Both the position numbers and the translations under genes were made by a program. From a virus (Duplodnaviria; Caudoviricetes): a stretch of DNA of 58,803 nucleotides. Shown here in pieces: positions 5,857-58,696 of the stretch (position 1 is the first letter of the stretch; each line of letters starts with the position of its first letter). The notes beneath the pieces were generated by a model. The model saw only the letters and a list, made by a program, of their open reading frames with translations, was not told the origin of the DNA and did no database searches. Location of the stretch: positions 1 through 58,803 of the IMG/VR virus record IMGVR_UViG_3300003690_000017; one strand, given 5' to 3'.

Positions 5857-6541
5857 GGGCCGCCCAAGGGATTTTCTTCAAAAGCTATCCAATAATCCCA
5901 AGCGCCTTACCGTCCTCGTCGCGCGGTCCATGGGGGCATCGTGGCGGGAGGCGGGCGAGGCGGCTGGGATTACCGAAAGTTCGGCGCGAAAGTATGAGGA
6001 TGCCGAATGGCACTGGGCCATTGCGCAGATTCAAGACAAGCTCATGGAGGGGGCCAATGCCGTCCTCGTCCAAGGGGCGCGAGCAGGCGTCAAGAAGGCG
6101 TGGCGCATCGCCCTCGGCTACGACCGCGCAAGCGCACCGCAGGTGTCCATGCTCAAGGACCTGCTGGAGCGGATTGGCGTGGGAACACGGAGGCACGAAG
6201 AGGCCACGAAGCACCTCCATGTCCACGGGCACGGCACGCTCGATGAAATCACGCAGGCATTCAACCCGTTCAGGGATGCGGTAGAAAATGGGGACATCCT
6301 CTCCCTCGAAGCGCTCCGCAAAGTCGAACTCCCAGTCAAGCATGAGCCTCGCGTCGATTCAGACGATGAAGGTGGAGGCGGCGATGGCGCTGGCGAGGAA
6401 GCGGTTCGCAGCGTTCTGCGAGACGACGCTAGAGACAGAGGACGGGCAGCCCATGAGGCCCGACAGGCATCACCGGGTCTGGACGGACAAACTTCAGGAG
6501 GCGGTGGAGCGGAAGGAAGCGGGGGTCCCGGGGCAGTCTAG
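5768..6541 (+). CDS. terS: Putative terminase small subunit
   Basis: HTH-like GASWREAGEAAGITESSARKY, helical core, directly upstream of TerL; start uncertain. Confidence 0.55.
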   Translation: MRPKAYTASSAPLGAFRVVPKSPVASARAKGRPRDFLQKLSNNPKRLTVLVARSMGASWREAGEAAGITESSARKYEDAEWHWAIAQIQDKLMEGANAVLVQGARAGVKKAWRIALGYDRASAPQVSMLKDLLERIGVGTRRHEEATKHLHVHGHGTLDEITQAFNPFRDAVENGDILSLEALRKVELPVKHEPRVDSDDEGGGGDGAGEEAVRSVLRDDARDRGRAAHEARQASPGLDGQTSGGGGAEGSGGPGAV

Positions 6542-25600: not shown

Positions 25601-25662
25601 CGGAACTGCCACCGGCAGACTACAGCCGCTCGTCCATGGAGGGTGTCTTTGCCGGGGGCTAG
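19663..25662 (+). CDS. Large internal virion / ejection protein 3
   Basis: 1999 aa; FHTRN and YNYAALTPIERKVFRRVIPFYAW segments typical of large podophage DNA-transfer proteins. Confidence 0.7.
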   Translation: MALNFGPIQRRQRPQRPPPMVQIPTPALPPVPQRSASVPPVPQPPQLPPVTIPQMPARRGEADDLGLLLAMMGEERQSRDQLAAGYEQSVREEEFSPLADKWTKRLGHTATHEQAQILELLGLPDDASQDVLDDAVRAVNLMKDRGQLSSEVFFWMKEQHPEIELSAELGLPIEPDAPPPSVSEQAAQIREEGGDRFFGPTFQAEAFAERAKGTDSLGSLIAQTGLAGLRKGFAEGVAKFDEASRGSSYDERVQEQIMEEMQKLTGRKDGEGPFDEFGRLAGYGPSEEGEASVGTRIYADLQEASGRPWTIDPREYGGDFGLARGYLANSAIKWADFFEGFGSGMGQDRPELFQEQIAESSAVLTPPPPPLSGSALDDERHAETRALIEMSTPEGNDPSTLSEVGLGQNVGGIVGTVFDNIMRPFHASMARERNIELAALGLEPLNPNGAAWDGFTLERRDTYMDILLDHGVQDPVILFMASLPVEIAMDPVTALGATGLARAVSKGVSHSIFGATSAAIRHAPPRIAGAMDTALAIVRVAKNPTGANLSFYRLGQEHLLRTWIERYGRRMGQITGQIDMQDARRIVKELNESMTPEQLAAMTAELDVGTEVWLAANPDLADPIMAKWTNRKQVAVRAGAERRAGLNVEDRMPDPTMPLGPGAEVPLGPPKATVGPQYSPAERALQENPAWTPEATAKFRERTAGVRDQAPFGPPAPKAEPVVTRAPRPPATASLVRTATGTTGTEIFRGDVPTGINRFNRRMARTQAVNRELLTSESMAGQTVPLGTGQTLRQAAPTPARRAPPANVLSPDEAAAAGAARNRGFRAAPERRPVGPDGLEWDGSGLAPPRAATAARVAGEVAEEVIDPATARLGQITGKAGQPVVPFQIDMQEWIGRYGRRVATPPRVATPPKPSGPSLPPTRALEHVREAVQASGTEPLRHAIGGRSEANIVDYVAHYRIGKLPESEMRGIGGFFRRLFGLDEKFISPEDLRGTGIRDITGRPSHMQQRKIQEPIAGTAQLTPADIAIEVDLAQRRKAYNLLWAVTDVIQQNGFAVHIDDINTMRRILGREVAGLTDEQAAKRLLVESGTLTAKQAEGVTMVLLDDVGANKGKTLVRNLANHRPGTLWGQTREVLSRKAPKDAKFATAAPGTATMVALPTPYAKFMTQLLDASDFGGFVRLYDAHLNFWKRASTVWAPLFHTRNGASNLYLNWLGGVANPKWYYEAMQIQKGARDGRMWGVEGVERISTADLIRRMEIQQVTRTGIVGEMQYHMGTKNATVAERRIKEWVKVGGNSALFGTEAYRAGISGLRGWDRVKYIYDSLPGAPTGSRSWGKMGMTLGGAIEDNAKIAHVLAKLSGGMTVNQAFDSSKMWLYNYAALTPIERKVFRRVIPFYAWQRHNVPRMLDAMFTQPHKVQMTQFFIRDAAGAISSAAGMDQRELAAAMALMPEFFQRIGGWVFGRDEAGNVKILRGQFGLPTEDIGMAAPFVDPAEWLDNFLSQLAPYASVLSAGIMEHSLFTGESTSEQSSGNFFTRTDANTFKMYKASDGALRYAEPFLGPLGGAVKDFREEFLGVREQQYVDARGNTRTSYLVRNPWFYAFATSLVQMTGAGRVGSSVRQLSDPRKSVADRIIGQFLPLKITSVDVTRKALNYYAGDATVWDHQLGHLSNQLEIQKLGGPNSMSIEKFLDTVYGPAVRNAYAFSQAQGRGLTQDPDFAQREAFRRMVLPPVQLALEAYRDGNPDWLRHKDWAPGGPPLHENGLKNWDGFFEWRDEFLEDPYAWMSERRHADGTPYVSFTGPDARQQIEGFNEQVAFQIKGGEGSLARRADKLGYDEVARFERWRQYAYKSYETYLDIDRWSRPELNAMADEAREYEVTYQELNRTSMIQAKMYRERGILFERAPGGAWVETGAVNPRIPAILQGAGSWDRKYANPQRRIYRARHPELTIFGLGARVSGFFDPSIIYTTDPPEEQGVVPELPPADYSRSSMEGVFAGG
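22364..22399 (+). repeat. 18-nt tandem duplication (RVATPP x2)
   Basis: GGGTTGCCACTCCACCGA twice. Confidence 0.9.
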
Positions 25663-26971: not shown

Positions 26972-27931
26972 ATGAGTTCTAACACTCAGACCCTAACCGC
27001 TGGTTCCAGCGGCCTGACCAATGAGGACAAACAGTTCTACGACAATGTTCTTCTGGAGCGGAGTCAAGAGAACCTGATCCACACCCAATTCGGACAGTTG
27101 CGCCCCATACCGGGGGGCATCGGTACGAGCATCGAGTTTCGGCGCTTTGAGCGCATAACCACGACCGAGGACACCACACTCACCGATGGCACCGTGCCGT
27201 CCGGCGAGTCCCTGAGTATCTCGACCGTCGTGGCGTCCGTTCCGCAATACGGGGCGTACGTACTTGGCTCGGACCACCTCGAATTGGCTTCAGTGGACCC
27301 AGTTCTTTCTGAACTGACTGGCCTCCTTGGTCAGCATGCTGGAGAAACTCTCGACCGCGTAGCCAGAAATATTCTGACTGCCGGTACGACGGTGCAGTAC
27401 GCGAACGCGCGAGCGTCCCGTACTGCTCTCAACTCGGGAGACGTTCTTGATTCCACAGAGGTTCTGACTGCGGTTGCGAACCTCAAGAATCAGAACGCTC
27501 GCCCGCTAGTGAGCCGTCGATTCGTGGCCCTTATCCACCCGTTTACGTGGCAGCGGCTCATGGCTGACACCACCATCACCAACATCTTTCAGAACGCCTA
27601 TCAGCGCTCTGATGAGGGCAACCCCCTCGCCGTTGGTGAGCTTGGCGACATTTATGGCGTCAGGTTTGTGGAGTCATCCAACTCCCGCGTATTTTCATCG
27701 CTTGGACAGTCCGGTTCGGACGTATACGCAACTCTGGTACTCGGTGCGGACGCCTATGGCGTTTCCGAAATCGACTCCTTGTCGTTGCAGTCGTACTTCC
27801 AGCCGCGCGGTTCCGGTGGTGCCACGGGCGACCCCCTGCACCAAATCTGGAGCATGGGTTGGAAGGCCAGCTTCACCGCCGTAATCCTGAATCAAAACTG
27901 GATTCGGAGAGTGGAGCACTGGAGCAACTAG
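26972..27931 (+). CDS. Major capsid protein, N4-gp56 family (HK97 fold)
   Basis: FGQLRPIP.G.GTSIEFRRF, QYGAY, GELGDIYGVRFVES, DPLHQIWSMGWKA motifs. Confidence 0.9.
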   Translation: MSSNTQTLTAGSSGLTNEDKQFYDNVLLERSQENLIHTQFGQLRPIPGGIGTSIEFRRFERITTTEDTTLTDGTVPSGESLSISTVVASVPQYGAYVLGSDHLELASVDPVLSELTGLLGQHAGETLDRVARNILTAGTTVQYANARASRTALNSGDVLDSTEVLTAVANLKNQNARPLVSRRFVALIHPFTWQRLMADTTITNIFQNAYQRSDEGNPLAVGELGDIYGVRFVESSNSRVFSSLGQSGSDVYATLVLGADAYGVSEIDSLSLQSYFQPRGSGGATGDPLHQIWSMGWKASFTAVILNQNWIRRVEHWSN

Positions 27932-28026: not shown

Positions 28027-28800
28027 ATGGGACGAAAACGAAAACGCAAGAAGAGAATCTCCACCGTCGAAGAGGTGGTCGAAGAAATCACGGAAGGGGC
28101 AGCGCCTCAGCAGGCGCAGATTGTCCCGATGCAGGTAGTCGAGCCTGACTCTGAAAATCCCCGTGAGGTGCCGGTGCTGACAATCGACGCCATTCGGCAC
28201 CTGAGGGGCCTCTTCCGGCAGCTAGACGACGAGTGGGCGAAGCTGCTCATGATCCACTGGCTCGACACCAACGACCCGCTGTCCGGGTTCACTGTCACCA
28301 TCATGGTGCCGGGCGAACCCACAATCGGAATCTTCCAGAATGCGCTGGAGGCCGCTGACGAGGACCTGCTGGCCGAGTTGTTTGAGGATGCCGAACGCGT
28401 TTACAATTTCCATCAGGAGCACCCGAATTCGGGCGGCACGACTACGCGCGAAGAGGCCGTGGTTCAGACGAGGGCGGAACTTGAGGCGCAGGCGAATACG
28501 TCAATGGTCCAACGGCGGATGAATGAGACGGTCCTATTTGACGACATGGGCACGCGGGACATCTTCGTTCCCGTCGGCTGCCCGTCGCCGATCATTGTCA
28601 ACAGCATGTCCTGTCGCGTCGTACCGGGGCAGATGCAGGCCGTGAAAATCGTGTTCATACCCGTGATCGAGGAGTGGGCGCGTGCGCAGGCGGAACTGGC
28701 GGCAGTGCAGGGGCAGATCGCTCACGTCGGCAACTCCGGCGACAAGGCTTACATCACGGCCCACAACGGCCCCGGCCACGATCCGTTCGCGGGGCTATAG
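28027..28800 (+). CDS. Hypothetical protein (basic N-terminus, acidic core)
   Basis: AAGGAG RBS; 257-aa ORF. Confidence 0.7.
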   Translation: MGRKRKRKKRISTVEEVVEEITEGAAPQQAQIVPMQVVEPDSENPREVPVLTIDAIRHLRGLFRQLDDEWAKLLMIHWLDTNDPLSGFTVTIMVPGEPTIGIFQNALEAADEDLLAELFEDAERVYNFHQEHPNSGGTTTREEAVVQTRAELEAQANTSMVQRRMNETVLFDDMGTRDIFVPVGCPSPIIVNSMSCRVVPGQMQAVKIVFIPVIEEWARAQAELAAVQGQIAHVGNSGDKAYITAHNGPGHDPFAGL

Positions 28801-29686: not shown

Positions 29687-32245
29687 ATGGCAGAAGCCCC
29701 ACCAGACGCCGCCACTGCCACAACAATCACGCTCGCGATAATCGCCCTCAACGGGGAGGAATCGCTCCCCGGCTTGCTGGATTCCTGCAAGGGCGTCTTC
29801 ACGCACATCGTCTGCGCCGTGGATAGCCGAACCAGCGACGACACACGCGCGGTCCTTGACACCTACGCAGTCGCCCATGAGGACTACGAGTGGGCGGACG
29901 ATTTCTCCTACGCGCGAAAAATGAGCTTCGATCTGGCCCGGAAGACAGATCCCGATTGGATCATGTGGCTGGACTGCGACGACGTGCTGGTTAAGGGGGC
30001 AATGATCCACCCGATCCTCGCGCACGCGCCCGACCACGTTTGGGGAGTGGCGGCCGACTACAAATACATGTTCTCGAAGGAGCACCGGGCTTGGCTAACG
30101 ACACACGACCGGGTGCGACTCGTCCGTGCTGACAAGCCATGGGTGTGGCTGAACCGGGTCCACGAGGTCCTGATGCTCGCAGAAACCGACCGCGACGATT
30201 CCAGCCGACGCGTCGCCATGTCACCCGAGTTCCATGTCGAGCACCAGCGGCCAAACGACGCGTTGACATTCGACCGGAATATCCATCTGCTGGGACTGAT
30301 GATTGACGACGATCAGGGCGCTGGGAGGCCCATAGACGCGCGCGTGCTCCATTATGTGGCGCAGGAGTACTACCACGCCGAGGAATACCAGCTTGCGGCC
30401 CAGTGGTGGGTGCGCTACCTCGAAGTCTCGGGCTGGCCGGAGGAATGCTACGACGCCCTCCTGAAGCAGGCCCATTGCTACACGGAAGTCGCGAAGAAGG
30501 CGAAGGGCACCGGGCAGGACGAGGTGCCGTGGTGGGGCCGAGCCGTCGAGTCCACCTTGAAGGCCATGGCTATACGCGACGACTGGTGCGACGCCTTCTA
30601 CCGCATGGGGATGATCGCCTGCGACATGGGGAGGTACGAAGCGGCCCTCCAGTGGACCGCCATCGCGAAAATGATTCCTGACAAGAAGGCGAGGACGCAG
30701 GGCCACAACGAACTGGATTACGACTATCACCCGGCCCTGTACGTGACACACGCGTACATGGCGCTCCAGCAGCCGCGCAACGCGCTCGACATGTGCGAGA
30801 TCATCCTGAAGGACTACCCCGGCAACGCCGTCTTCATGGAGAGGAAGCAGCAGGCGGAGGTGTGGCTCAGGCAGGAGGAACTGGCTGCGTCGGCGATCAC
30901 GGTGGCCGAAAACATGCACCCGTCGGACCTTGATGCCTTTTGGGGGACTGTCCCGAAGGAGGCCAAGTCCGCCAATAAGCTCCGCGAGATGTGCGTGCCC
31001 GTCATCCACGAGGCGCGTATGGCCCTCGGGCGGTTAGCCAAGGGCAGCAACAGGATCGTATTCCTCTGCGGTGAGGGCATCGAGCCGTGGTGCCCGGACT
31101 CTCTCGATGAGGGCGGCCTCGGAGGCTCCGAGACTGCCGTGGTGCACTTGGCGCGAATCTTTCAGGCGCGGAACTTCAACGTGGATGTCTACAACTTCGC
31201 AGGACCCTACGAGGGTCGCCATGACGGCGCTGGCTATTGGGACATGTCCCGGTACGACCCGGACGACCCGGCCATGCTAACAGTTGCCTCCCGCATGCCC
31301 GACATGCCGCGACCGGCGGGCACCGATCAGTATTGGCTATGGGCGCACGACCTCAATTACAAGGACGAGTTCCGCTCCGACATGGCCCGCCGGTTCGACC
31401 GGATCATGCCGGTGTCTGAGTTCCACGCGAACTGGCTTGACCAGTGCTACCCGTGGCTGCGGGGCATCGGGAACGTCACGCCAACGCGAAACGGCATCGA
31501 CCTGAGCCGCTTTGCTGACAGGGACAAGATCGACAAAATCCCGAGGAAGTGCATTTACACCTCGTCGCCCGACCGAGGGCTGGCCGAGATTCTGGTCATG
31601 TGGCCGCAGATCAAACAGGCTTACAGCGATGCCTCCCTGCACATCTTCTACGGGTTCCAGAATTGGGACTACATCATTCGCGCAGGCAACAAGGAACTGG
31701 CCGCCAGTAAGGCGTACCTCGTGGACCAGCTTGAGCGCATGAAGCCGCTCGATGTCACCTTCCACGGGCGCGTCGGGCAGGCAGAACTGGCGAAGCACTG
31801 GATGGAGAGCGAGATTTGGGCCTACCCGGCGACCTTCATCGAAACGTCCTGCATTTCCGCGATGGAGGCTGCGGCTGCGGGGGCAGTGCCGATCACCAGC
31901 CAACTTGGTGCCCTGCCGGAGACGATCGGTGATCGCGGCATCTTGCTGCCAATGGGCTGCCCGAAGAACCGGACCTATCAGGAAATGTTCCTCGGCACCG
32001 TCGGGCAGATGCTCTCGACCAAGGAGGACATCGCGGAGCGGATCGCCAGTTGGCAGGACACCGGCATCACCGAGCTTGATGCGCAGATGAAGAAGTCGTT
32101 CGAGGACATGCAGGAAGCGGAAAATCCTGCGATAGAGCTACGCGAGCGCGGGTATGCTTACGCGAGTAACTTCTCATGGGATGGAGTCGCCGATCAATGG
32201 GTGGACTGGCTGACAAATGCGAATCTGCCTAATAAATCCCCCTAG
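29687..32245 (+). CDS. Multidomain glycosyltransferase: GT2 + TPR + GT4
   Basis: WADDFSYAR and WIMWLDCDD (GT2 DxD), TPR-like helices, GGSETAV...YTSSPDRGL...ETSCISAMEA (GT-B). Confidence 0.85.
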   Translation: MAEAPPDAATATTITLAIIALNGEESLPGLLDSCKGVFTHIVCAVDSRTSDDTRAVLDTYAVAHEDYEWADDFSYARKMSFDLARKTDPDWIMWLDCDDVLVKGAMIHPILAHAPDHVWGVAADYKYMFSKEHRAWLTTHDRVRLVRADKPWVWLNRVHEVLMLAETDRDDSSRRVAMSPEFHVEHQRPNDALTFDRNIHLLGLMIDDDQGAGRPIDARVLHYVAQEYYHAEEYQLAAQWWVRYLEVSGWPEECYDALLKQAHCYTEVAKKAKGTGQDEVPWWGRAVESTLKAMAIRDDWCDAFYRMGMIACDMGRYEAALQWTAIAKMIPDKKARTQGHNELDYDYHPALYVTHAYMALQQPRNALDMCEIILKDYPGNAVFMERKQQAEVWLRQEELAASAITVAENMHPSDLDAFWGTVPKEAKSANKLREMCVPVIHEARMALGRLAKGSNRIVFLCGEGIEPWCPDSLDEGGLGGSETAVVHLARIFQARNFNVDVYNFAGPYEGRHDGAGYWDMSRYDPDDPAMLTVASRMPDMPRPAGTDQYWLWAHDLNYKDEFRSDMARRFDRIMPVSEFHANWLDQCYPWLRGIGNVTPTRNGIDLSRFADRDKIDKIPRKCIYTSSPDRGLAEILVMWPQIKQAYSDASLHIFYGFQNWDYIIRAGNKELAASKAYLVDQLERMKPLDVTFHGRVGQAELAKHWMESEIWAYPATFIETSCISAMEAAAAGAVPITSQLGALPETIGDRGILLPMGCPKNRTYQEMFLGTVGQMLSTKEDIAERIASWQDTGITELDAQMKKSFEDMQEAENPAIELRERGYAYASNFSWDGVADQWVDWLTNANLPNKSP

Positions 32246-33524
32246 CCCGTTCCTAATCAACGCGGACATTTTCAGTCCGCTCGGGCTGTACTACGTCGGG
32301 GCGGAGTTGAAGGGGCGCGGCCACGAGGTCGCCTATATCGACCAAGGGATTGGCGACACGATCCCTGACGGCTTCGACGTTTACGGGGTCACAGGGACCA
32401 CACCGCAGGCCCCAGCGATGCGGCAAGCCCTTGCTGACATCCACGATATGGGGCACCCGGTCGTGGTCGGCGGGCCACACGCCACGCTCGATTGGACGGA
32501 CGTGCAGACATGGCACCCCGACTCCGTGTACGTCGGAGAGGGCGAGGAAATGGGCGTAGAGACGCTTTTGGCCGCTGGTGGGGGCGACGTGAAGGATTTG
32601 GTCATCGGGGGCCGCCTGAAGGACCTGAACGCCGTCCAGCACCCGGATAGAACGGACGAGCTTCGCTACACCTTCGACATCCACGGCAAAAGGGCCACGA
32701 CGATGATGACCTCGCGCGGGTGTCCGTTCACCTGCGCCTTCTGTGCGGGACGGACCAGCGACTTCGCCGGGTTCGGGCGCGAGGTTCACATGCGCCACGC
32801 CGAGAACGTGATGGAGGAAATCTATCAACTCAAGGACCTCGGCTTTGAGTCGATCATGTTCTACGACGATATTTTCGCGATGTCGCGCTCGCGCATGAAG
32901 ACGCTTGCTCCGCTGATGGAGGCCACGGGGATGAACTTCAGGGGCTTCCTGCGGGCGAACATGATGGACGAGGAAATGGCCGATCTGCTGATGCAGGCCG
33001 GGTTTGCTGAGATTTGCTTCGGGATTGAGTCGGGCAGTGAACAGATTCTCCTGAACATCGAGAAGCGGGAGACTGTCCAGCAGGGGTACGACGCGATACG
33101 CATAGCGATGGCCGCAGGGCTGAGGGCCAAAACCTTCTACATCGTGGGCTTACCCGGCGAGTCGCCTGACACAATCAAGGAGACGGCGGAATTCATCAGT
33201 AAGGCGCAGCCAACCGACGTGGATTTCTCGATCCTGACGGTCTACGCCGGAACACCGATCCACGACCACCCCGAGAATTACGACGTTGAGTTCAGCGAGC
33301 CGACCTTCTATAAGGGTAAGCCCGGTGAGTACAACGCCCATGTCAGCACGAGCCACATGACCTCCGAGGAAATCGTCGCAGCCCGCGACTGGCTAGAGAC
33401 GGAATTCAAGGACTGGGGCGTGGTGATGAATCAAGCGGACAAAGAGTCCCTGCTAAGTACGCAGGGGGCGGCAGACCGACAAGAGCACATCGCCGACATC
33501 GACCGGATGCTGGCTACGGGCTAG
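32217..33524 (+). CDS. B12-binding radical SAM protein (class B methylase-like)
   Basis: N-terminal cobalamin-binding domain (LINPP, PLGL, VVGGPHAT, GEGE), SRGCPFTCAFC, FGIESGS, GLPGE. Confidence 0.9.
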   Translation: MRICLINPPSPFLINADIFSPLGLYYVGAELKGRGHEVAYIDQGIGDTIPDGFDVYGVTGTTPQAPAMRQALADIHDMGHPVVVGGPHATLDWTDVQTWHPDSVYVGEGEEMGVETLLAAGGGDVKDLVIGGRLKDLNAVQHPDRTDELRYTFDIHGKRATTMMTSRGCPFTCAFCAGRTSDFAGFGREVHMRHAENVMEEIYQLKDLGFESIMFYDDIFAMSRSRMKTLAPLMEATGMNFRGFLRANMMDEEMADLLMQAGFAEICFGIESGSEQILLNIEKRETVQQGYDAIRIAMAAGLRAKTFYIVGLPGESPDTIKETAEFISKAQPTDVDFSILTVYAGTPIHDHPENYDVEFSEPTFYKGKPGEYNAHVSTSHMTSEEIVAARDWLETEFKDWGVVMNQADKESLLSTQGAADRQEHIADIDRMLATG

Positions 33525-34576
33525 ACCGCTCCAACCTTGGCGTGGGCGTCAACTAGTTCACTGATGACGGCCTGTACGCCGACGCGGGGACGCCAACCGT
33601 AGCCTTGGTGGAATCGGCGCGAATCGTTGATGAGACAAATCTGGTCCGCATGGCGTGGCTTGTCCTCAAATTGCAGGATGGCCTCCATCTGGCTATCGGC
33701 TTCGATCATTTCGATGGCCTCCAGAATGGACACCGAGTTGCGCCGTCCGCCGCCGAGGTTGTAAACCAGTCCGCCCGGGGCAGGCTGGTTGATGAAGTAC
33801 TCGCACGCGGTCATCACGTCGCTTGCGTGCAGTTGATCGCGGACCTGCTTCCCCCTGAACCCGTAAACCGTGTAGGTCTTGCGATCCTGAATCGTGCGGA
33901 CAAGATTGCTCAGGAAGCCGTGCATCGGCACACCGGCATGGCGCGCGCCCGTCATGCAGCCCGCCCTGAAGCACACCGTATTCATGTTGTAACCGCGACC
34001 ATACTCCTGCACGAGGATGTCAGCGGCGAGCTTGCTGGCCCCGTACTGGGTGTGGGTTGTCTGGTCAATGCGCAGAGATTCATCAATGCCGCCCATATCA
34101 ACCATGCGCTCAAAGTCGTAGCGGGTTGAGCCTTCCTTGAACGGGATGCTCTCCATCGTCCCGTAGACCTTACTGCTGCTCATGAACACGAACGGGCTTT
34201 TGGGGCAGGCCGTCCGCACCGCATCCAGCACGTTCAGCGTACCTTCGACGTTCACGCTCCAGTTCTCGCGCGGGTTCAGTTCCCCGTACTCGTGAGCGGG
34301 CTGTGCGGCAGCGTGGATGATGGCGTCCGGCCTGTGCTCGTGCATGATCTGCGTCATCTTGCTGGCCTGCCGTATGTCGATGTTGTAAAACTGGAAGTCC
34401 GTCCCGAGCGTAGCCGTCAGGTATTCGCGCACCAGCGTTGTGTCGCCACCCCGCCCGAAGAAGTGGCGGCGCATGTTGTTGTCGATGCCGATGACCTTCC
34501 AGTCGCGCTCGGCAAAATGAAGGACTGCTTCGCTTCCGACGAGGCCGCTGGAGCCTGTTACCAAAATCGTGGGCAT
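33521..34576 (-). CDS. NAD-dependent NDP-sugar epimerase/dehydratase (CDP-paratose 2-epimerase-like)
   Basis: TGSSGLVG, HAAAQP, YGASK, GKQVRD motifs. Confidence 0.88.
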   Translation of the reverse strand: MPTILVTGSSGLVGSEAVLHFAERDWKVIGIDNNMRRHFFGRGGDTTLVREYLTATLGTDFQFYNIDIRQASKMTQIMHEHRPDAIIHAAAQPAHEYGELNPRENWSVNVEGTLNVLDAVRTACPKSPFVFMSSSKVYGTMESIPFKEGSTRYDFERMVDMGGIDESLRIDQTTHTQYGASKLAADILVQEYGRGYNMNTVCFRAGCMTGARHAGVPMHGFLSNLVRTIQDRKTYTVYGFRGKQVRDQLHASDVMTACEYFINQPAPGGLVYNLGGGRRNSVSILEAIEMIEADSQMEAILQFEDKPRHADQICLINDSRRFHQGYGWRPRVGVQAVISELVDAHAKVGAV

Positions 34577-34582
34577 GTCGCT

Positions 34583-34588
34583 AGTATA
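34583..34588 (-). promoter_or_regulatory. -10 element for a leaderless epimerase mRNA
   Basis: TATACT exactly 6 nt before the ATG, no Shine-Dalgarno sequence. Confidence 0.55.
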
Positions 34589-34609
34589 GGCAAATGACGC
34601 CGCCGACGT

Positions 34610-34879
34610 TCATGCCTCCACATGCCAAAGATGGCGGGGATTCACGCACCCCGGAGTGTCGCAGCGGTGCATAACGATGCGGTGACGCAGCGGCTCCCCG
34701 CGATCCATGATCCACGCTGCTCTGTGCGCATACACGTTGACCGAATGGGGGGCACCGGACTGGATATGGCCGTAGCCGCGCGGGTCCTTAGCGCCAGTCC
34801 ACATCCAGCATTCGTCGGGGCCGCCGCGATCCACTTTGGACCAGAAGCGGCGGTGAAAGTTGTCTAAGGACCCACTCAT
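34610..34879 (-). pseudogene. HNH endonuclease, apparently C-terminally truncated
   Basis: RFWSKV...CWMWTG...YAHRAAW...VMHRCDTPGCVNPRHL, then a stop before the usual GTxxxN helix. Confidence 0.6.
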
Positions 34880-35618
34880 TTCAATCTTTACGCCTATCTG
34901 GAATCGCCCCAAGCACCTGAGGGCGTATCTCGCCGCCATGGGCGCGCAGACGTACCCGCGTTTCGAGGTCTTCGTTTACGATGACGGCAGCGATGAGCCG
35001 ATGCTTGCGTGGGTGCGGGAGGCTGTAGCGGAACTCGGCGAGGCTGCGCATGTCGTGAAGTTCCTTGAACATGAGCGTCAGCGTAAACCTGATGACCCTG
35101 ACGGCCATCCCGGCTACCCCCAGTGGGCGAAGCAATATAATACGGTATTCCCTCAGTCCCGAGGCCAGATCGTCGGCATCCTTTCGAGCGACTGGATGCC
35201 CGAGCCGGACTTCCTTTCGACGGTCGCGGGGCACCTTGAGCACCTCGGCCCCGGCAACATGGTCTTTGGCGACGTGCCCGAGCAGAAAGTCACCAAGGCG
35301 TTTTATCCGGAGGGGGCCACCTCAGGGTTGTATCCGGTTTACGACTTCACTGCTGCTGACACGCGCAACCAGAATTTCCTGTGGCGGCAGGACTGGCAGG
35401 ACTGGGATGAGACGTTTGATGAGTTCGGCTTCGGCCACGCGATGCCTTACTGGAACGCCTCCGTTGTGAAGAAAGGGAGGTGCAAGCTGTGGGTGTCGCT
35501 GGACATGAAGGCCCGCGAGAACATGCACGACAACCCGCCCGAATTCATAGATCAGGTGAACGCCTCGGCAAGGTATTACGTCGGCAGGATGGAGCCGTGG
35601 AAGACGCCGCTCAAATGA
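34860..35618 (+). CDS. Glycosyltransferase family 2
   Basis: ISIFTPIWNR...FEVFVYDDGSDE; SRGQIVGILSSD. Confidence 0.8.
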   Translation: MSKDPLISIFTPIWNRPKHLRAYLAAMGAQTYPRFEVFVYDDGSDEPMLAWVREAVAELGEAAHVVKFLEHERQRKPDDPDGHPGYPQWAKQYNTVFPQSRGQIVGILSSDWMPEPDFLSTVAGHLEHLGPGNMVFGDVPEQKVTKAFYPEGATSGLYPVYDFTAADTRNQNFLWRQDWQDWDETFDEFGFGHAMPYWNASVVKKGRCKLWVSLDMKARENMHDNPPEFIDQVNASARYYVGRMEPWKTPLK

Positions 35619-35649
35619 TTACCACGGGTCGAACATGGAGGCATATCGA

Positions 35650-36861
35650 ATGAAAATCACCTTCTTCAGCGGCTTCGGCTACTGGAAAAAGCTCGGGCCG
35701 AAGGCCCACTTGCAGAAAGGTTCCATGCTCGGCGGCGGCGAGACGAGCCTGATAGAACTCGCGACGGCCCTCGGCAAGCGCAAGGGCGTCGAGGTCACCG
35801 TCATCGGTGATGTCGAGAAGGTGGGCCGCTTTGGCAAGGTCAACTGGATGCAGTGGCCGGGCGAAGAGGGCGTCCCCGAGGGCTGGCAGGCCGATCCGTG
35901 CGACGTGTTTATCGCTTGCGACGCCCCCGGGGCCTTAATGGCCGCCGAAAATGCCACCCTGCGTCTGCTGGACTGCCAAAACAATCACTTCATCATCGCT
36001 CAGGTAGAGCACATGCTGGATGTGGTGGTGGCGCGTTCGGAATGGCATGGTGACACGCTGGAGAGTCACGATCCGAATATCACCCATCAACTCCGCTGGG
36101 TGATGCCTAACGGGATCAGGACGCAACGCTTCGATACCAAGCGGAAGATCGAACGCGAGCCGCTCCGCTGCATGTACTCCAGTAGCCCCGACCGTGGCCT
36201 GCACCACCTCTGCCGCATCTGGCCGAAGGTTCGGGAGGCCCTGCCGGAGGCCGAATTGCACGTCTACTACGACGTGAAGAACTGGATCGAATCCCTCCAG
36301 TGGAACATGGACTTCATGGCTGACCGCGCGTGGCAGGTGAAGCTGGCGATGGGCTACGACTACGAGGAAGAAATTGACGGGGGAACGGCCACCAAGTCGA
36401 TCCCGGGAACCCCCGGCATCATCTTCCACGGCCCTGTCGATCAGGACACGCTGGCGCTCGACATGCTCAAATCGAACCTGCTCCTTTACCCCTGCGACAC
36501 CGTGCAGCCCACGGAAGGGTTCTGCATCACGATCGCCGAGGGTCTGGCTGCTGGCTGCGGCGTGGTGACAACGAACTGCGACGCGATGAACGAACTCTGG
36601 AGCAAGTACGCCACCGTCGTCCCGCTCCCGGTGGACGACGACATTTGGGCCGAGGCGATCACGCGCTTGCTGACTGAGGACGAGCTTCGGGAGCAGCACG
36701 CGGAGAACTGGCGTGCGGGCAGCAAGTACGTGCGCGAACACCTACGCTGGGACGAAATCGCGTCTGTGTGGCAAAATAGGCTTGCCGCCAAGCTCAGGGA
36801 GAAGAAACGCTCTGGGCACAACGCTAGAGAAACTGCTCCTCGAACTCGGATCGCGCCTTAG
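35650..36861 (+). CDS. Glycosyltransferase family 4 (GT-B)
   Basis: GGGETSL...YSSSPDRGL...EGFCITIAEGLAAG; paralogous to the GT4 half of 29687-32245. Confidence 0.85.
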   Translation: MKITFFSGFGYWKKLGPKAHLQKGSMLGGGETSLIELATALGKRKGVEVTVIGDVEKVGRFGKVNWMQWPGEEGVPEGWQADPCDVFIACDAPGALMAAENATLRLLDCQNNHFIIAQVEHMLDVVVARSEWHGDTLESHDPNITHQLRWVMPNGIRTQRFDTKRKIEREPLRCMYSSSPDRGLHHLCRIWPKVREALPEAELHVYYDVKNWIESLQWNMDFMADRAWQVKLAMGYDYEEEIDGGTATKSIPGTPGIIFHGPVDQDTLALDMLKSNLLLYPCDTVQPTEGFCITIAEGLAAGCGVVTTNCDAMNELWSKYATVVPLPVDDDIWAEAITRLLTEDELREQHAENWRAGSKYVREHLRWDEIASVWQNRLAAKLREKKRSGHNARETAPRTRIAP

Positions 36862-43453: not shown

Positions 43454-44491
43454 ATGGCTACCGCTATCTCTTGGGGGCACGCCACCCGGCTGCCCTTCTC
43501 AGACCGTCAGGAATGGCTCGCCCTTCGACGTAAGGGCCTTGGCGGAACTGACGCCGCCGCGATCCTCGGCGTCAACCCCTACCGCTCCGCGCTGGACGTG
43601 TACCTCGACAAGAAGGGGCTGGTCCCCGAGCTTGAGGAAAACGCCGCAATGGAGTGGGGGAAACGCCTTGAAGACGTGATCGCGACAAAGTTTGTGGACG
43701 ACAATGTGGTGCAACACGATTGGAGCGGGGGAAATAAGGTGGGGTTTGGGTTCTACCTTCGCTCTGCCCAAGAGATCGGTGGCCTTCTCCAGCATCCCCA
43801 GCAGGGTGGATTCGGGTTCATGCTGGCGACACCGGACTACTTTGAGCCGACGCAAAGCTGGGGACTGGAGATTAAGACGGCGGGCGCGATGATGGCCCCG
43901 CAGTGGGGCGACCCACCGTCGATGCTCAACGTACCCGAGCACTACCGGGTTCAGTGCGAGCACTACATGATCGTGACTGGTGCCGCGATGTGGTATCTGG
44001 CCGTCCTGATCGGCGGTCGCGACTACCGTGTCTATGAAATCTGTCCGAATGAGGACCGCGTGGAGAAGCACAAGGCTGCTCTGCTGAGGTTCTGGAACGA
44101 GAACATCCTCGCCGATCTGGCCCCGGAGCTTGATGCGTCCAAGGCTGCTGACACGTACCTGAGGGCCTCGCACCCCGAGGCCACGGCGGGCATGATCGCG
44201 GGCAACGCCGACGACGAGGACGATTACGCGAAGCTGCTCTTGCTGCGTGACACCCGCGACATCGCCGCAGAGGAGTACAAGACCGCCGAAAACCAGATGA
44301 AGGACCGTATCGCGAAGAACGAGGGCATCGAGTTTGCGGAAGGTGGGGCCGTCACTTGGCGGTCGCACGAGCGAAGGAAGACGGACTGGCAGGCGCTCTC
44401 GCGAGATTTTTTGCCGACGCTGGGCGAAAAAGACATAGACGACTTCACCGAATCCAGCGTCTATCGACGCTTCGTAATCAAGAAAGGCTGA
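43454..44491 (+). CDS. YqaJ-like viral recombinase exonuclease
   Basis: WLALRRKGLGGTDAAAILG, ATPD, LEIKT, YRVQCEHYM motifs. Confidence 0.92.
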   Translation: MATAISWGHATRLPFSDRQEWLALRRKGLGGTDAAAILGVNPYRSALDVYLDKKGLVPELEENAAMEWGKRLEDVIATKFVDDNVVQHDWSGGNKVGFGFYLRSAQEIGGLLQHPQQGGFGFMLATPDYFEPTQSWGLEIKTAGAMMAPQWGDPPSMLNVPEHYRVQCEHYMIVTGAAMWYLAVLIGGRDYRVYEICPNEDRVEKHKAALLRFWNENILADLAPELDASKAADTYLRASHPEATAGMIAGNADDEDDYAKLLLLRDTRDIAAEEYKTAENQMKDRIAKNEGIEFAEGGAVTWRSHERRKTDWQALSRDFLPTLGEKDIDDFTESSVYRRFVIKKG

Positions 44492-44495
44492 AGCC

Positions 44496-45662
44496 ATGAC
44501 ACAGGAATCAACCGACCTAGCGTTCCCGCAGCGAGTTCAGGAGTGGGAGAAGTTCCTCGGGCACAACAAGAGCCGCGTAGCCCAACTCGTGAACCAGCGC
44601 GTAGACGTGGGTACGTGGCTACGGGTGGCAATCACGTCCATGCAGCGCAACCCGCTGCTGCTCGACTGCACCCGCGAAAGCATCATGAACGCCCTACTCG
44701 TGGGGGCAGGCATGGGACTCGACTTCGCCGACGGCAAAGACCACCTCTACCTCGTCCCGTTCAAGAACAACCGCCTCGGCAAATACGAGGCGACCTGCAT
44801 CGTCGGCTACAAGGGTTTGATGGAGCTTGCGGTGCGCGAGGGCTACGCCAAGCGCGTGGTGGCCCGGGCCGTGTACGAGAGCGATCACTTCGAGTACGAC
44901 CTCGGCATCAACGAGAAGCTGGAGCATCGGCCCGAGGGTGAGCGCATGGACGAGACTGACATCACGCACGTTTACGCGATCGCCTTCCTCCGGAACGGCG
45001 ACTCCATCTTCGAGGTCATGGACCGCAATCAGGTGGAGAAGATCAGGGCGGGCAGCCGCGCCCGCAACGCGACGGCGTGGACCGAGCACTGGGAAATGAT
45101 GGCTCGCAAGACTGTCATCAAGCGCCTGTCGAAGGCGTTCACCGGCGGCGCAGACACCCCGCCCGCAAACTCCTTCGTCACCGCGATGGCGATTGAGGAT
45201 CGCGCCGAAGGCGGCAACATGGAGATCAGCGATCTGGTGCCGGAAACTACTGCTCCCTTGGAGGCCCCGGCGGAAACGCAAGAGCCTGCGCAACGCGAGG
45301 GGGCGAGCGAGAACGGTGCTGACACGAAAGCTGCGACACCTGAGGCCCTCGCCGAACTCGCTCTGGCGGCCGCGAAGGCCCAGCCGAAAGCTAAGGCAAA
45401 GGCCAAGGCCCGCGCCAAGCCCAAGGCCAAGCCGAAGGAGCCGCCCGTCGAGAATAAGCAGGAGGCCGATATTGTCGCTTCCCCAGAGGACGCGGGCATG
45501 CCCAAGGGCGAGCTTTTGTACTGGCAGCAGGTATTCGGGGCCGTAGCGGTGCCCGAGGGCTTGGCGCTGGTCGTGACGCGCAATACATTCGAGCCGGGTA
45601 GCAAGGCGTTCCGCCAGTTCATGGACATGCACGACGCCCGCGTGGCGCAGCTAGAGGGTTAG
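44496..45662 (+). CDS. recT: RecT family single-strand annealing protein
   Basis: LYLVPF...VGYKGLMELA...AVYESD.F...WEMMARKTVIKRL; adjacent to YqaJ. Confidence 0.92.
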   Translation: MTQESTDLAFPQRVQEWEKFLGHNKSRVAQLVNQRVDVGTWLRVAITSMQRNPLLLDCTRESIMNALLVGAGMGLDFADGKDHLYLVPFKNNRLGKYEATCIVGYKGLMELAVREGYAKRVVARAVYESDHFEYDLGINEKLEHRPEGERMDETDITHVYAIAFLRNGDSIFEVMDRNQVEKIRAGSRARNATAWTEHWEMMARKTVIKRLSKAFTGGADTPPANSFVTAMAIEDRAEGGNMEISDLVPETTAPLEAPAETQEPAQREGASENGADTKAATPEALAELALAAAKAQPKAKAKAKARAKPKAKPKEPPVENKQEADIVASPEDAGMPKGELLYWQQVFGAVAVPEGLALVVTRNTFEPGSKAFRQFMDMHDARVAQLEG

Positions 45663-45694: not shown

Positions 45695-47815
45695 TTGCCC
45701 GGAATGACCGACATCGTAGACGCGTTACATGGCCGCAAGGAAGGCCGGTCGTTTCGGGGCGACTGCCCCGTCTGCGGCGCGAACGATTTTGTTATCACGC
45801 CACCGCGAGACTCGAACATAGTGAACCCGCTCGTCTATTGCTGGCACGGTTGCGCTGGCGAGGATGTGATACAGGCGCTCACCGAGCAGGGGCTATGGAC
45901 AACCGCCGAGCAGAACGGCACTGTCAGCAGAAAAAGAAGGGCCGTTGCCCCTGATACCTTCCCGCCCTCCGAGCATACATCCACGCACGCGAGCCAAAAG
46001 CCGGATGTCAGCAAGCCCCCCGCGGCGATCTACCAGTTCCGCTGGAACAACGGCGATGACCCGGTGGCCGAGAAGGGTAGGTGGGAGACGCCCGATGGGG
46101 CCAAGACATTCAGGTGGCGCGGCTACGGGAAGACGGATTGGAAGGGCCTGCCGAGGCCGCTCAAAGAGAAGGACGTACCGCTCTACCGGACAGAAGACCT
46201 TGAGAATCTCGCCGCTGATGTGCCCGTGTGGTTCGTAGAGGGAGAGAAGTGTGCGGATGCGCTGGTGGGGGCGGGTTACGCGGCTGTGAGCGCTGGCGGG
46301 GGCGCTGGGCAGAGCGAGTTCGGCGAGGGCCTGACGATCCTGCGCGACAGGGCGGTGATCCTGTGGCCGGACAACGACTCGGACGGTCGCAAGTTTATGC
46401 ACGAGGTCGCCAAGCAGATCGAGCCTCAGGTGTCGCAGCTTGAGATAGTGCGCCCGGTCGTCAGCAAGAAGGGCGATGCCGTGGATTTCCTCGCCGAGGG
46501 TGGGGATGTAGAAGAACTGGAAGTGGCACCTTACACGACGCAACCTACGGTTGAGGCGCTTGAGGGCGATGACAATTTCCGGTGCCGGATACCTCTGGCC
46601 GAAGGGGCCATCCTGATCGACGGGCGCGACATGCGTCAGAACCCACAACGGATCGACTGTGACTTCGTGACTCGCGTGTCAGCACCGGGTTCCAAGAAGG
46701 ACATCTTCTCGGGCCGACTCAATCTGCTCTCCCTCAGCAATCGGGAGCTTTACCGGCGTCAACTGGACGCGATGTTCGGGAAGGAATTTGGGTGGACCGC
46801 GCACATAAACATCGCGACCTCCATGATTCGGAACGCCTACCTGATGTCGGACGATGCCGTCCAGCTTGCTGATGTGGACCCGGTGGTGGCGCACAGGGGC
46901 TTCCTCGTCGCCCCGTTCCTCCCGGCGCACCAACCGTCGATCTTCTTCGGCGACGGTGAGGCCGGTAAGACCTTTCAGGCATACCTGCTCGCGCTCTGCG
47001 TCGCGCACAAAATGGCGTATCTGAAATTTGATGTGCCTGCCGAGCACGGCCGGGTCATGATCGTGGACTACGAGACGGACAAGGAAACCGCCAAGGTGCG
47101 CCTACTGCGCCTCCTGAAGGGCCTCTCGCTGGGCTGGCCGCAGGACCGGCTGATTTATTGGGGCGCGCGAGGCATCTCTCTGCCTGCACAGAAGGAGGCG
47201 ATCAAGCGGCGCGTGCTGGAGGACGATGTGCGCCTGCTCGTCATCGACAGCGCCGCCGCCGCCTGCGGGGAGCCGCGCAACGAGCAGGAGGTGCTCGCGT
47301 ACTTCAACGCTCTGGCGTACATCGGGGTGACCAGCCTGACAATCGCGCATGTGAGCCACGGCGACGGCACTCAGAGGCAACGGTACAAACCCTTCGGATC
47401 GGTCTTCTGGCACAACGCAGCCCGATCCACTTGGTACGTGACGCGGGTACAGGGTGGTGGTGCTGACATGGAAGTCGGCCTGATAAATCGCAAAATGTCG
47501 AACGGCCCGCGCCACAAGCCCCTCGCAGTCACGATGAAATTCGATGATTCGGACCCACTCGGGTCGATCAGGGTGGAGACGGCCAGCGGCGACGACGTGC
47601 CAGAGATTCGCAACGAGCTTCCACTTCCGCAGCGGTTCATGACCCTCTTGCGTGTCGGCGAGAGAGTCGGCCGCACGGAACCGCACACGACGGAAGAGTT
47701 GTGCGCGCAGTCGTGGGTTAGCGAGGACGCCGGGAAGCGTGTGCTTACTGGGCTGGAACGCAAGGGTGAGATTCATTCTGCGGGTGACGGCCTGTGGGAG
47801 TTGCCCGCGCCTTAG
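45695..47815 (+). CDS. Primase-helicase (Zn-binding + TOPRIM + RecA-like AAA_25 + wHTH)
   Basis: CPVC...CWHGC; VEGEKCAD, WPDNDSDG, GDAVD; GDGEAGKT, LLVIDS. Confidence 0.85.
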   Translation: MPGMTDIVDALHGRKEGRSFRGDCPVCGANDFVITPPRDSNIVNPLVYCWHGCAGEDVIQALTEQGLWTTAEQNGTVSRKRRAVAPDTFPPSEHTSTHASQKPDVSKPPAAIYQFRWNNGDDPVAEKGRWETPDGAKTFRWRGYGKTDWKGLPRPLKEKDVPLYRTEDLENLAADVPVWFVEGEKCADALVGAGYAAVSAGGGAGQSEFGEGLTILRDRAVILWPDNDSDGRKFMHEVAKQIEPQVSQLEIVRPVVSKKGDAVDFLAEGGDVEELEVAPYTTQPTVEALEGDDNFRCRIPLAEGAILIDGRDMRQNPQRIDCDFVTRVSAPGSKKDIFSGRLNLLSLSNRELYRRQLDAMFGKEFGWTAHINIATSMIRNAYLMSDDAVQLADVDPVVAHRGFLVAPFLPAHQPSIFFGDGEAGKTFQAYLLALCVAHKMAYLKFDVPAEHGRVMIVDYETDKETAKVRLLRLLKGLSLGWPQDRLIYWGARGISLPAQKEAIKRRVLEDDVRLLVIDSAAAACGEPRNEQEVLAYFNALAYIGVTSLTIAHVSHGDGTQRQRYKPFGSVFWHNAARSTWYVTRVQGGGADMEVGLINRKMSNGPRHKPLAVTMKFDDSDPLGSIRVETASGDDVPEIRNELPLPQRFMTLLRVGERVGRTEPHTTEELCAQSWVSEDAGKRVLTGLERKGEIHSAGDGLWELPAP

Positions 47816-57273: not shown

Positions 57274-57436
57274 GCGCACTACTCCTTTGCACTAGCGCCA
57301 GCTAGGGGCTGACGCATTTATCCCGGCGACACCGGGTTTGCGTAATCCGCGACCGTCTGCCGCCACGAGCGCACATATACATACACGCATATATGCGTTC
57401 GAGGCGGCAGGAGTGCTCGCGCACTCCCACCTCACG

Positions 57437-57670
57437 CTATTTGCGCGCTAGTCTCGGAGCGCTGTACGCGTGGAATCCGGCGTCCACCATTTCGCGTACA
57501 TGGCCTTCGTCAAAATTGGCGCAAACTTCGTCCACCCCCACGATGCGATCCGCGCAGAGCACTATGTCGCGCACTACGCGTCCATCGCGCCCATCGCGCT
57601 CCTCACGCGCTTCCCTGTCCATTGCGTCATACATGGGACGCAACGCGTCCGATCCAATAGCGTGACTCAC
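57437..57670 (-). CDS. Hypothetical protein with DRIVGVDEV motif
   Basis: AAGGGG RBS; 20-nt identity with the downstream paralog. Confidence 0.55.
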   Translation of the reverse strand: MSHAIGSDALRPMYDAMDREAREERDGRDGRVVRDIVLCADRIVGVDEVCANFDEGHVREMVDAGFHAYSAPRLARK

Positions 57671-57723
57671 AGCAAACCCCTTTGCGTGCTTGCGTATTGC
57701 GTGACCAATTCACACTGTACGCA

Positions 57724-57804
57724 TGGTGGAGGTGACGGGAGTCGAACCCGCGTTCCCGTACTGTCCCGCATGGGGTTTTAGTACAGGGCTTGCCACACAC
57801 CCCC
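57724..57804 (-). ncRNA. 81-nt tRNA-like RNA resembling the tmRNA tRNA-like domain (Ala identity)
   Basis: GGGGGTG/CACCTCC-A-CCA acceptor with G3-U70, T arm GCGGG-TTCGACT-CCCGT, no D stem, long central stem. Confidence 0.7.
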
Positions 57805-57846
57805 AAACGGGCGAGGAGCGCTCATACGCTCCCCGCCCCCGGGCCC

Positions 57847-58446
57847 CTAGGCGAGCTCCTTCATCACGAGCGCCGTGATCTTGGATACGAGTGTGGCGAC
57901 GTTTGCCTCACTGGTGGCGACTTGCTGTTTCGCCGTCACGCGCTCTGCCTTAGCGACGCGCTTGGCGGCCGACTTGGCTTTTTTCGTGACCTTGACCGCG
58001 TCGCGCTCCACCTGATCCTTCGAGTAGCTCTCGAAGTAGCCAACCACCGTATTCTTACGGGTGGCGACCTGTAGCGTGACGGAGGCGACGCGCTGGAGGT
58101 CCGCACGGGCCATGTCGAAGCACATACCCGTCGGGAAGCCACCCCAAGCCGTACTCTGTGGATACGGCTTGCAGCTTGGCCGCTGACCCGACACCATCTC
58201 TATTCCCGCAGCCGCTATCACGAACGTTTTGGGCGACGTGACGCGAACAGTGACGCTACCCTGTCGCGACTTGGTCCCAGCCTTGGCGTCGCGTATCACC
58301 TCCGTCATTTTGTCCACGCTCGTCTCTTCTATCACGAGCTTGACGCTTGCGTCCTTCGCCAGTGCACGCAATTCGTCGAACGCCCGTCCCGAGTTATGCA
58401 CTTGGTACCACCCGATTGCGATCTGTGCTGTCTGTGCTTGTGCCAT
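57847..58446 (-). CDS. Hypothetical early protein with Lys/Ala-rich C-terminus
   Basis: GAGGAG RBS; first gene after the promoter at 58500-58528. Confidence 0.65.
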   Translation of the reverse strand: MAQAQTAQIAIGWYQVHNSGRAFDELRALAKDASVKLVIEETSVDKMTEVIRDAKAGTKSRQGSVTVRVTSPKTFVIAAAGIEMVSGQRPSCKPYPQSTAWGGFPTGMCFDMARADLQRVASVTLQVATRKNTVVGYFESYSKDQVERDAVKVTKKAKSAAKRVAKAERVTAKQQVATSEANVATLVSKITALVMKELA

Positions 58447-58609: not shown

Positions 58610-58696
58610 TTCGATCCTCTCGATCCTATCTGGCGCGATTTCGATCCTCTCGATCCTTTCGATCCTTTCTCGCGGATCATTCGATCGTTCGATCCT
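58610..58696. repeat. Cluster of TCGATC(CT) direct repeats
   Basis: TCGATC at 58611, 58620, 58641, 58650, 58659, 58681, 58689; 18-nt unit repeated at 58610 and 58640. Confidence 0.9.

Follow-up and report, generated by a model that had tools for sequence, protein, structure and literature searches.

The tmRNA-SmpB pair is the main ribosome-rescue and protein-tagging system of bacteria, and some phages depend on it. The tRNA-like domain (TLD) of tmRNA is recognized by a 7-bp acceptor stem with G3-U70 and A73, the identity set for alanyl-tRNA synthetase (AlaRS), while in the full molecule the junction of the D region and the linker forms tandem G-A pairs. Molecules reduced to this domain have been reported. 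A "TLD only" tmRNA of Mycobacterium phage DS6A was listed by Hudson, Lau and Williams in 2014 (PMC4131195), and a passage of the same paper states that tmRNA in E. coli is strongly inhibited by a molecule of this sort, whether or not it can be charged, perhaps by titration of SmpB (PMC4131195, citing Mao et al. 2009). The relevant section of a 2025 database paper repeats the statement on DS6A and describes tmRNAs without a tag reading frame in plastids of Mallomonadaceae (~65 bp) and in jakobid mitochondria (PMC11915505); according to that section, the mitochondrial form occurs together with SmpB, and the authors presume that these reduced RNAs still function with SmpB and aid with incomplete mRNAs. 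No wider phage family of TLD-only RNAs beyond DS6A was found described in the literature searched.

The locus studied here is an 81-nt element near the end of a linear IMG/VR virus record, IMGVR_UViG_3300003690_000017, estimated by CheckV to be ~65% complete; the whole 58,803-nt stretch of DNA that was analyzed is referred to as the window. The element was originally predicted as a new kind of RNA but turned out to be a divergent member of the kind noted for DS6A in 2014. The two are alike in size (81 versus 83 nt), in the acceptor with G3-U70 and A73, in the unpaired D region and the T arm, and in the single H2 hairpin, which has an AAAACC-type internal loop and ends in a small apical hairpin. 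Both are carried by phages without an SmpB gene, and both match the covariance model R1 described below (51.8 bits for the window and 58.3 bits for DS6A). However, the window has CAAGCC and AAC in place of the consensus UCGAC and the CAC junction retained by DS6A; DS6A ends in ACUA, whereas the window encodes ACCA; and the two elements have unrelated neighboring genes. DS6A, a temperate actinophage, has an integrase gene ~10 kb away from the element, while the window represents a marine phage in which no integrase was found. The DS6A element, which was located by R1 at positions 28478-28560, has no annotation in the GenBank record, where gp33 and the DnaN-like gp34 flank it; the phage also encodes an RtcB-like RNA ligase (gp76).

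Other known RNAs are more distant. Bacterial tmRNA (SsrA, RF00023) shares with the element both ends of the Rfam model, the AlaRS identity elements, and the T loop, but it contains a resume codon, a tag frame, and all pseudoknots, where the window has 37 nt instead of 318 model positions. Organellar tag-less tmRNAs, as presented in the section cited above, are similarly reduced to the tRNA-like domain (PMC11915505); they are, however, the only tmRNA of the cell and belong to a reduced genome, whereas the element of the window is an additional copy that a virus brings into a cell presumably equipped with a full tmRNA. Full-length phage tmRNAs (for example, gp91 of mycobacteriophage PegLeg, 403 nt, and those with annotated tags in Streptomyces phages) are also phage-borne and have the 3' TLD sequence, but they keep the tag reading frame and are caught by standard annotation. 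tRNA-Ala resembles the element in G3-U70, A73, the T arm, and CCA, but has a D stem and an anticodon arm bearing NGC, both of which the element lacks.

Phage genome and neighborhood of the element

The head protein of the phage shared 30-39% identity with its counterparts in Bacillus megaterium podophages, Streptomyces phages, and uncultured phage contigs; other recognizable genes are given in Table 1. Three consecutive giant ORFs at 10858-25662 (1,207, 1,726, and 1,999 aa, the second with a metallo-endopeptidase domain) resemble the internal virion proteins or ejection proteins of a podophage-like virus. A glycosyltransferase cluster with a nucleotide-sugar epimerase gene (29687-36861) is located between the head and replication genes. 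DNA of this phage or its close relatives was present in seawater and hydrothermal-vent metagenomes from many studies, and no RNA run was among the listed holders of the phage sequence. Genes for SmpB, tyrosine integrase, large serine recombinase (Pfam Recombinase), and tRNAs were not found in the window. BLASTN of a 1.5-kb region against isolated phages gave no match, no relatives of the two neighbor proteins were found in viral contigs, and TBLASTN of 40 window proteins against TLD-bearing loci returned only weak scattered matches.

The element lies between two small genes of the same strand, neither of which has a family match. A scan for promoters and terminators called none on the minus strand near the element. 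A TTGACA-17 nt-TAATTT arrangement, not called by the promoter scan, was noticed by eye on this strand at 58528-58500, ahead of the upstream ORF. The repeat AGGATCGA was found nine times in the window against 2.3 expected, a count reached in none of 100 shuffles. The cluster of six copies is a candidate regulatory or iteron array and is not part of the RNA. Its length is variable, since the contigs of marine relatives contain an extra 20 nt at ~58650-58660.

Table 1. Coordinates of the element, its parts, and its surroundings in the window, and of TLD-only RNAs next to head genes in related loci
Feature	Position	Strand	Basis or remark
Large terminase	6288-7970		
Major head protein	26972-27931		
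RecE- and RecT-like genes	43454-45662		
Primase/helicase	45695-47815		
Downstream ORF, 77 aa, GTG start after AAAGGGG	57437..57670	-	no family match
Hairpin starting right after CCA	57691..57723	-	fold of 57660-57870
TLD-only tmRNA gene, complete unit, 81 nt	57724..57804	-	sequence, fold, Rfam tmRNA, family model R1
Acceptor 3' strand CACCUCC, discriminator A, encoded CCA	57724..57734	-	sequence
T arm GCGGG-UUCGACU-CCCGU, closing pair G-U	57735..57751	-	sequence, fold
AAC linker, counterpart of GAC in the tmRNA GGAC	57752..57754	-	A1 columns A52, C53
H2-like long hairpin CCCUGUACU/AGUACGGG with AAAA internal loop and 3-bp apical hairpin CCC-CAUGC-GGG	57755..57788	-	minimum-free-energy fold
Unpaired D-region analogue UGUGGCAAG, 9-10 nt	57789..57797	-	alignments A1, A5
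Acceptor 5' strand GGGGGUG; G3 of G3-U70 at 57802	57798..57804	-	sequence
13-bp G+C-rich hairpin, 4 nt upstream of the first base of the RNA, just past the stop of the upstream ORF	57809..57838	-	fold of 57660-57870
Upstream ORF, 199 aa from ATG 58446 (214 aa from TTG 58491)	57847..58446	-	no family match
Six AGGATCGA repeats within 86 nt, upstream of the leftward gene block	58611..58696	-	repeat count
TLD-only RNA of L005 (duplicate L057)	4155-4236		
TLD-only RNA of L006 (duplicate L065)	4915-4997		
TLD-only RNA of L049	9660-9740		

Structure of the element

The sequence written out in the original prediction matched the minus strand letter for letter at 57804..57724, and position i of the element corresponds to window coordinate 57805-i. 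The layout proposed for it, with a 7-bp acceptor containing G3-U70, an A discriminator, CCA, a T arm, an unpaired D region, and a 3-nt linker, agreed with both the sequence and the fold. It was reproduced by the minimum-free-energy and centroid folds of the 81 nt (ViennaRNA) and was retained when the 211-nt context 57660-57870 was folded (z -3.42). Since the folding energy of the 81 nt alone was ordinary (z -0.88; 30 of 200 shuffles were as stable), the case for the element rests on homology.

The acceptor stem GGGGGTG/CACCTCC comprises 7 bp, of which the third is G-U. The arms CCCTGTACT/AGTACGGG form the long hairpin, which is capped by the 3-bp inner hairpin, with AC after the latter. A T arm with a GGUUCGAnUCC-type loop is present and an anticodon arm is absent, as is the mRNA-like domain with its resume codon, tag frame, and pseudoknots, only 37 nt being left between the TLD halves. 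The single hairpin thus stands in place of the mRNA domain in a complete gene-like unit, as predicted, rather than in a mere 3' fragment of ssrA. The TGC of the apical loop, which had been taken for the alanine anticodon, is due to chance: the loop is only 5 nt long on a 3-bp stem, and TGC occurred in 27 of 96 distinct apical regions, ranking 24th among the 64 trinucleotides.

The element departs from the tmRNA consensus at the D region and linker. The D region UGUGGCAAG keeps the GG that is invariant in the family, followed by CAAGCC where the relatives usually have UUCGAC (alignments A1 and A5), and it received the lowest posterior probabilities when the element was aligned to R1. The A and C of the linker, which are invariant across the family (columns A52 and C53 in A1), are retained as well, while GGAC is changed to GAAC. 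The CAAGCC/GAAC-type variant was also found in L049, L006, L004, and L005. The junction reads G-C...A-A-C in the window versus the usual G-A...G-A-C; it is identical in L049 and L006, with close variants in L004, L114, and L005. The variant junction may alter the contact with SmpB, and the binding could be weakened because CAAGCC and AAC depart from the tmRNA consensus UUCGAC and GAC.

Detection by standard tools and by a family model

ARAGORN called no tRNA, tmRNA, or tag anywhere in the window, and Rfam found no match in it at the gathering score. In a permissive search of 57600-57950 (351 nt), the Rfam tmRNA model RF00023 aligned the element end to end (model positions 1-374) with 34.1 bits and an E-value of 2.8e-12, both TLD halves being matched and the 318 model positions between them reduced to 37 nt; the score on the element's own record was 42.6 bits, and both values are below the gathering score of 47 bits. 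The tRNA model scored below the tmRNA model and was eliminated in the Rfam clan competition. Judged by sequence and structure, the element is a tmRNA that has lost its middle part and has diverged too far to reach the curated cut-off.

The covariance model R1 was built from eight similar viral elements as seeds with the structure supplied by hand, and the window was not a seed. R1 recovered the element with 51.8 bits (E-value 2.9e-10) as the sole match with an E-value up to 10 across the whole window, which together with the end-to-end RF00023 alignment bears out the assignment to a tmRNA TLD without tag frame or pseudoknots. Applied to 100 sources, R1 gave 43-86 bits for most TLD-only elements, with a few odd lower matches, and at most ~41 bits for tRNAs called by ARAGORN. 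However, a score near 50 bits is not proof alone, since L104, which reached 50.3 bits, proved to be the terminal portion of a true full-length tmRNA bearing a Xanthomonas-type tag; the same probably holds for L032, whose sequence is nearly identical. In the window, the 5' half of the element directly follows a protein-coding ORF and a hairpin, with no tmRNA body upstream. The 25-nt 3' end was present in one copy in the window, and none of 100 shuffles contained a match.

ARAGORN "tmRNA" calls over L011, L033, and L023 were spurious, with tags that the program left unidentified running into the TLD. At L011, the supposed tag was a misreading of three tandem 21-bp repeats (GTACCCATAATGGGACTGATC type, ~7445-7510) that abut the TLD-only RNA and run into its 5' end. 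L033 contained a match to a type II hammerhead ribozyme at 974-1038 (44.1 bits, cut-off 37), ~1.2 kb from its TLD-only RNA.

Viral relatives and covariation

A first scan of IMG/VR viral contigs for a tmRNA-type acceptor stem, T loop, and CCA within 30-60 nt matched at least 119 loci. ARAGORN called 74 of 124 matches to this pattern tRNAs (60 Ala, 8 Tyr, 2 Thr, and 4 others); among the matches listed, ~34 of the 50 uncalled ones shared the layout of the window and were 62-91 nt long. Because the first pattern had fixed most of the acceptor stem, a second scan was run that left the acceptor stem free and constrained no more than the D-loop end, linker, and T loop. It matched at least 120 loci, with at least 95 distinct matches, 90 of them with a 7-bp acceptor stem. 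Among the listed matches with six or more acceptor pairs, G3-U70 was found in 90 of 91 and A73 in all 91; CCA was encoded in 27 of the 91 elements listed, and the modal length was 82 nt. The two scans together yielded more than 100 distinct TLD-type elements of 62-98 nt.

Covariation was assessed in two alignments fitted to the model, a procedure that favors pairing; the raw pattern counts of G3-U70 and A73 are free of that bias. Alignment A5 contained 34 rows fitted to R1, of which L104 and L064 (called tRNA-Cys) are to be discounted, and 98.5% of its cells paired compared to 46-56% in slid controls. Alignment A6 had 76 distinct rows among its 95, which were drawn from the window, DS6A, and the first 98 of the 109 new loci; 98.8% of its cells paired, and the covariation score was 0.760 versus 0.137 in shuffles. 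Changes on both sides were found in six of six basal H2 pairs in A5 and in five of six in A6. In the latter alignment, acceptor pairs 4-6 and four T-stem pairs also changed on both sides, while acceptor pairs 1-3 were constant, being unvarying in all 76 distinct relatives. Strong covariation of the helices among related viral elements, proposed originally as a check, was thus observed. MAFFT alignments A1 and A2, in which the 5' ends were staggered, were excluded from the counting.

Rfam was more successful with the relatives than with the window: 15 of 20 related loci exceeded the tmRNA cut-off (56-75 bits over matches of 66-84 nt), and L005 and L006, which belong to the group that most resembles the window, are among the five below it. 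A pattern based on the GGCAAG D region of the window gave 102 distinct matches, 51 of which had at least six acceptor pairs; among these 51, only the already known L034 and L080 were of TLD type, and the rest were tRNAs or odd tRNA-like sequences.

Some loci deviated from the common type. L276 contained an ~84-nt TLD-like RNA around 6299-6350 (GGCUUAGAC...GGAC, T arm, ACCA) in which C3-G70 replaces G3-U70, and which may be a TLD-shaped RNA with another amino-acid identity. Unannotated tmRNA-type 3' ends were also present at 3001-3030 in L123 (Alcaligenes phage vB_Af_QDWS595), L124 (Acinetobacter phage BUCT628), and L125 (Stenotrophomonas phage Moby). R1 gave them 26-38 bits with poor 5' halves, and they probably represent full-length or other forms rather than TLD-only RNAs.

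Genomic context of the relatives

In L005/L057, L006/L065, and L049, the prohead protease gene ends 6-8 nt ahead of the TLD-only RNA, and the major capsid gene follows closely behind it; this is the group whose D-region/linker junction is closest to that of the window. A terminase, portal, protease, or capsid gene adjoins the element in 14 of 81 loci, a count based on 148 flanking proteins (the first 150 of 189 minus two DS6A proteins). Elements of other relatives were found near primase, Pol III, lysis, or WhiB genes, and tRNA genes were present within 1 kb at 5 of 37 related loci. Among 74 cases, the element shared its strand with the nearest upstream ORF in 57, and that ORF lay no more than 30 nt away in 14. 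SmpB was encoded in none of 21 TLD-bearing phage records. Early expression, which had been proposed for the element, is unproven since these contexts are so diverse, including late head-gene operons, tRNA arrays, and replication and lysis modules.

Conservation in marine contigs

Contigs from four seawater runs contained relatives of the window at ~95-97% identity. X2 and X3 differed from it by 19 substitutions and a 9-nt deletion over 57300-57995, and X4 by eight substitutions, none of which fell within 57676-57893; the hairpin at 57809..57838 likewise had no substitutions in the contigs of marine relatives. Under a uniform model, a substitution-free block of 218 nt has a probability of ~8e-4, while for the 81-nt element alone the value is ~0.10 and not significant. 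The contigs share one haplotype, so this is one comparison and not three; the differences of X5 were listed in part only. Run X5 also contained many 31-nt contigs, with depth up to 1100, that match 57723-57753 with 1-3 differences and probably stem from the 3' ends of tmRNAs or tRNAs of organisms abundant in the sampled seawater.

Functional interpretation

Sequence comparison confirmed the feature as real, namely, as a divergent TLD-only tmRNA gene of the family that includes DS6A. Its product would most likely be an RNA that is charged by AlaRS, bound by host SmpB, and in competition with host tmRNA, a reading to which we give a little better than even chances. The element would be co-transcribed with the flanking leftward genes, and the RNA would be excised in a tRNA-like manner, with RNase P cutting at G+1 and the 3' end being trimmed back to the encoded CCA. 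Host AlaRS could then charge it with alanine through G3-U70 and A73, and host SmpB could bind it; dependence on the host for this protein follows from the absence of an SmpB gene both in the window and in the 21 TLD-bearing records. The RNA would compete with host tmRNA for SmpB and, when charged, also for EF-Tu and stalled ribosomes. The expected outcome is less ssrA tagging and coupled decay during infection, which may benefit the phage. Titration of SmpB, suggested in the original prediction, had already appeared in print for DS6A, in a passage of the 2014 paper (PMC4131195).

Alanylation is predicted from the conserved identity elements. G1-C72, G2-C71, G3-U70, and A73 are invariant beside freely compensating neighbors, and therefore charging appears to be under selection. 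This fits better with an RNA that reaches EF-Tu and the ribosome than with a passive sponge. There is some tension here, since the published inhibition, as described in that passage, needs no charging (PMC4131195), yet the alanine identity set is almost perfectly conserved across the family. Because charging is apparently selected, competition with host tmRNA is the best reading and rescue without tagging its main rival. In the latter case, the alanyl-TLD together with SmpB and EF-Tu would take over the nascent chain and free the stalled ribosome, and the phage would profit from recycled ribosomes instead of from a block of the host system. The near-invariant identity set (G3-U70 in 90 of 91 and A73 in 91 of 91 of the matches listed), next to acceptor pairs 4-6 that vary freely, is consistent with such a role, but no continuation beyond peptidyl transfer is known for an RNA that lacks a resume codon. 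The persistence of tag-less tmRNAs in jakobid mitochondria and Mallomonadaceae plastids, as given in the section on these organelles (PMC11915505), also speaks for it, whereas the sole experiment on such an RNA cited in the DS6A passage reports inhibition (PMC4131195), and on balance we consider this role rather unlikely. It is still less probable that the RNA diverts, as a decoy or spare substrate, host nucleases or toxins directed against the acceptor or T arm of tRNA or tmRNA in anti-phage defense. A tRNA-shaped, phage-borne RNA with tRNA genes within 1 kb at 5 of 37 related loci would suit translation-repair cargo, and the RtcB-like RNA ligase of DS6A points the same way; however, no defense or counter-defense gene was recognized beside the element, and the conservation of specific tmRNA features (GG, the GAC/GGAC-type junction, and H2) goes beyond a generic tRNA shape.

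Alternatively, the element could act mainly as an RNase P cleavage signal that would punctuate a polycistronic transcript and leave the upstream mRNA with a protective hairpin, similar to mascRNA. Its position 4 nt after a 13-bp hairpin and between two same-strand genes agrees with this, as do the upstream ORFs of the relatives (57 of 74 on the same strand, 14 within 30 nt) and the location of many relatives between protease and capsid or terminase and portal genes, but RNase P needs neither the invariant G3-U70 and A73 nor the tmRNA junction, and the match to the mascRNA model was weak (16.1 bits, E-value 1.2); this explanation is improbable, marginally more so than the nuclease decoy. tmRNA 3' ends are common integration sites, and the element could be an attP site or a remnant of host ssrA left by imprecise excision. 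The last 26 nt match tmRNA-type 3' ends in 28 bacterial genomes, and ARAGORN found a full-length tmRNA at 23 of the 28 sites. However, the identity to bacterial ssrA extends over no more than 26-30 nt and involves unrelated, mostly low-G+C taxa, while the 5' acceptor strand, D region, and H2, none of which an att core would need, are present and covarying. The possibility raised at the outset that the only match would be to a host ssrA 3' end is contradicted by this complete, covarying, two-sided TLD. In addition, the window contains no tyrosine integrase, large serine recombinase, or second copy, although the ~65% completeness of the record leaves a small doubt about the integrase; a tyrosine integrase was found in 3 of 21 TLD-bearing records (2 above the cut-off) and in 1 of 10 records with at least 90% completeness, and some relatives lie within head-gene operons, positions that integration would destroy. 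An integration origin is thus very improbable. When used as a pointer to the host, the 26-nt 3' end singled out no taxon, its 28 matches being in unrelated bacteria. A decayed tRNA-Ala gene or a chance tRNA-like fold without function would explain the silence of ARAGORN and of Rfam at the gathering score and the unremarkable folding energy, but tmRNA prevailed over tRNA in the clan competition, an anticodon arm is missing, more than 100 covarying relatives share the architecture and invariant positions, and the element is unchanged in the diverged marine relatives; we rate it as hardly credible, on a par with the integration origin.

For the window alone, competition with host tmRNA aside, the result is the correct annotation of an overlooked RNA gene. 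Standard tools overlook this divergent copy, as ARAGORN is silent and Rfam scores it below the cut-off, and the data suggest that the family is far larger than the searched literature indicates, with one published phage example mentioned in one sentence. We propose tentatively, at slightly less than even chances, that TLD-only tmRNAs are a large, conserved, uncatalogued family of phage RNAs (well over 100 distinct elements, often placed inside the head-gene operon) that are charged, enter the ribosome, and rewire host rescue while phage genes are expressed, and that the window represents a divergent marine branch with an altered SmpB-side junction. The invariant alanine identity set, the lack of an SmpB gene in any member, and the recurrence between head genes frame the question of whether such RNAs soak up SmpB like a sponge or work on the ribosome as charged substrates. 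A phage RNA that uses the tRNA-like half alone would be a compact means to block or redirect the tmRNA-SmpB system.
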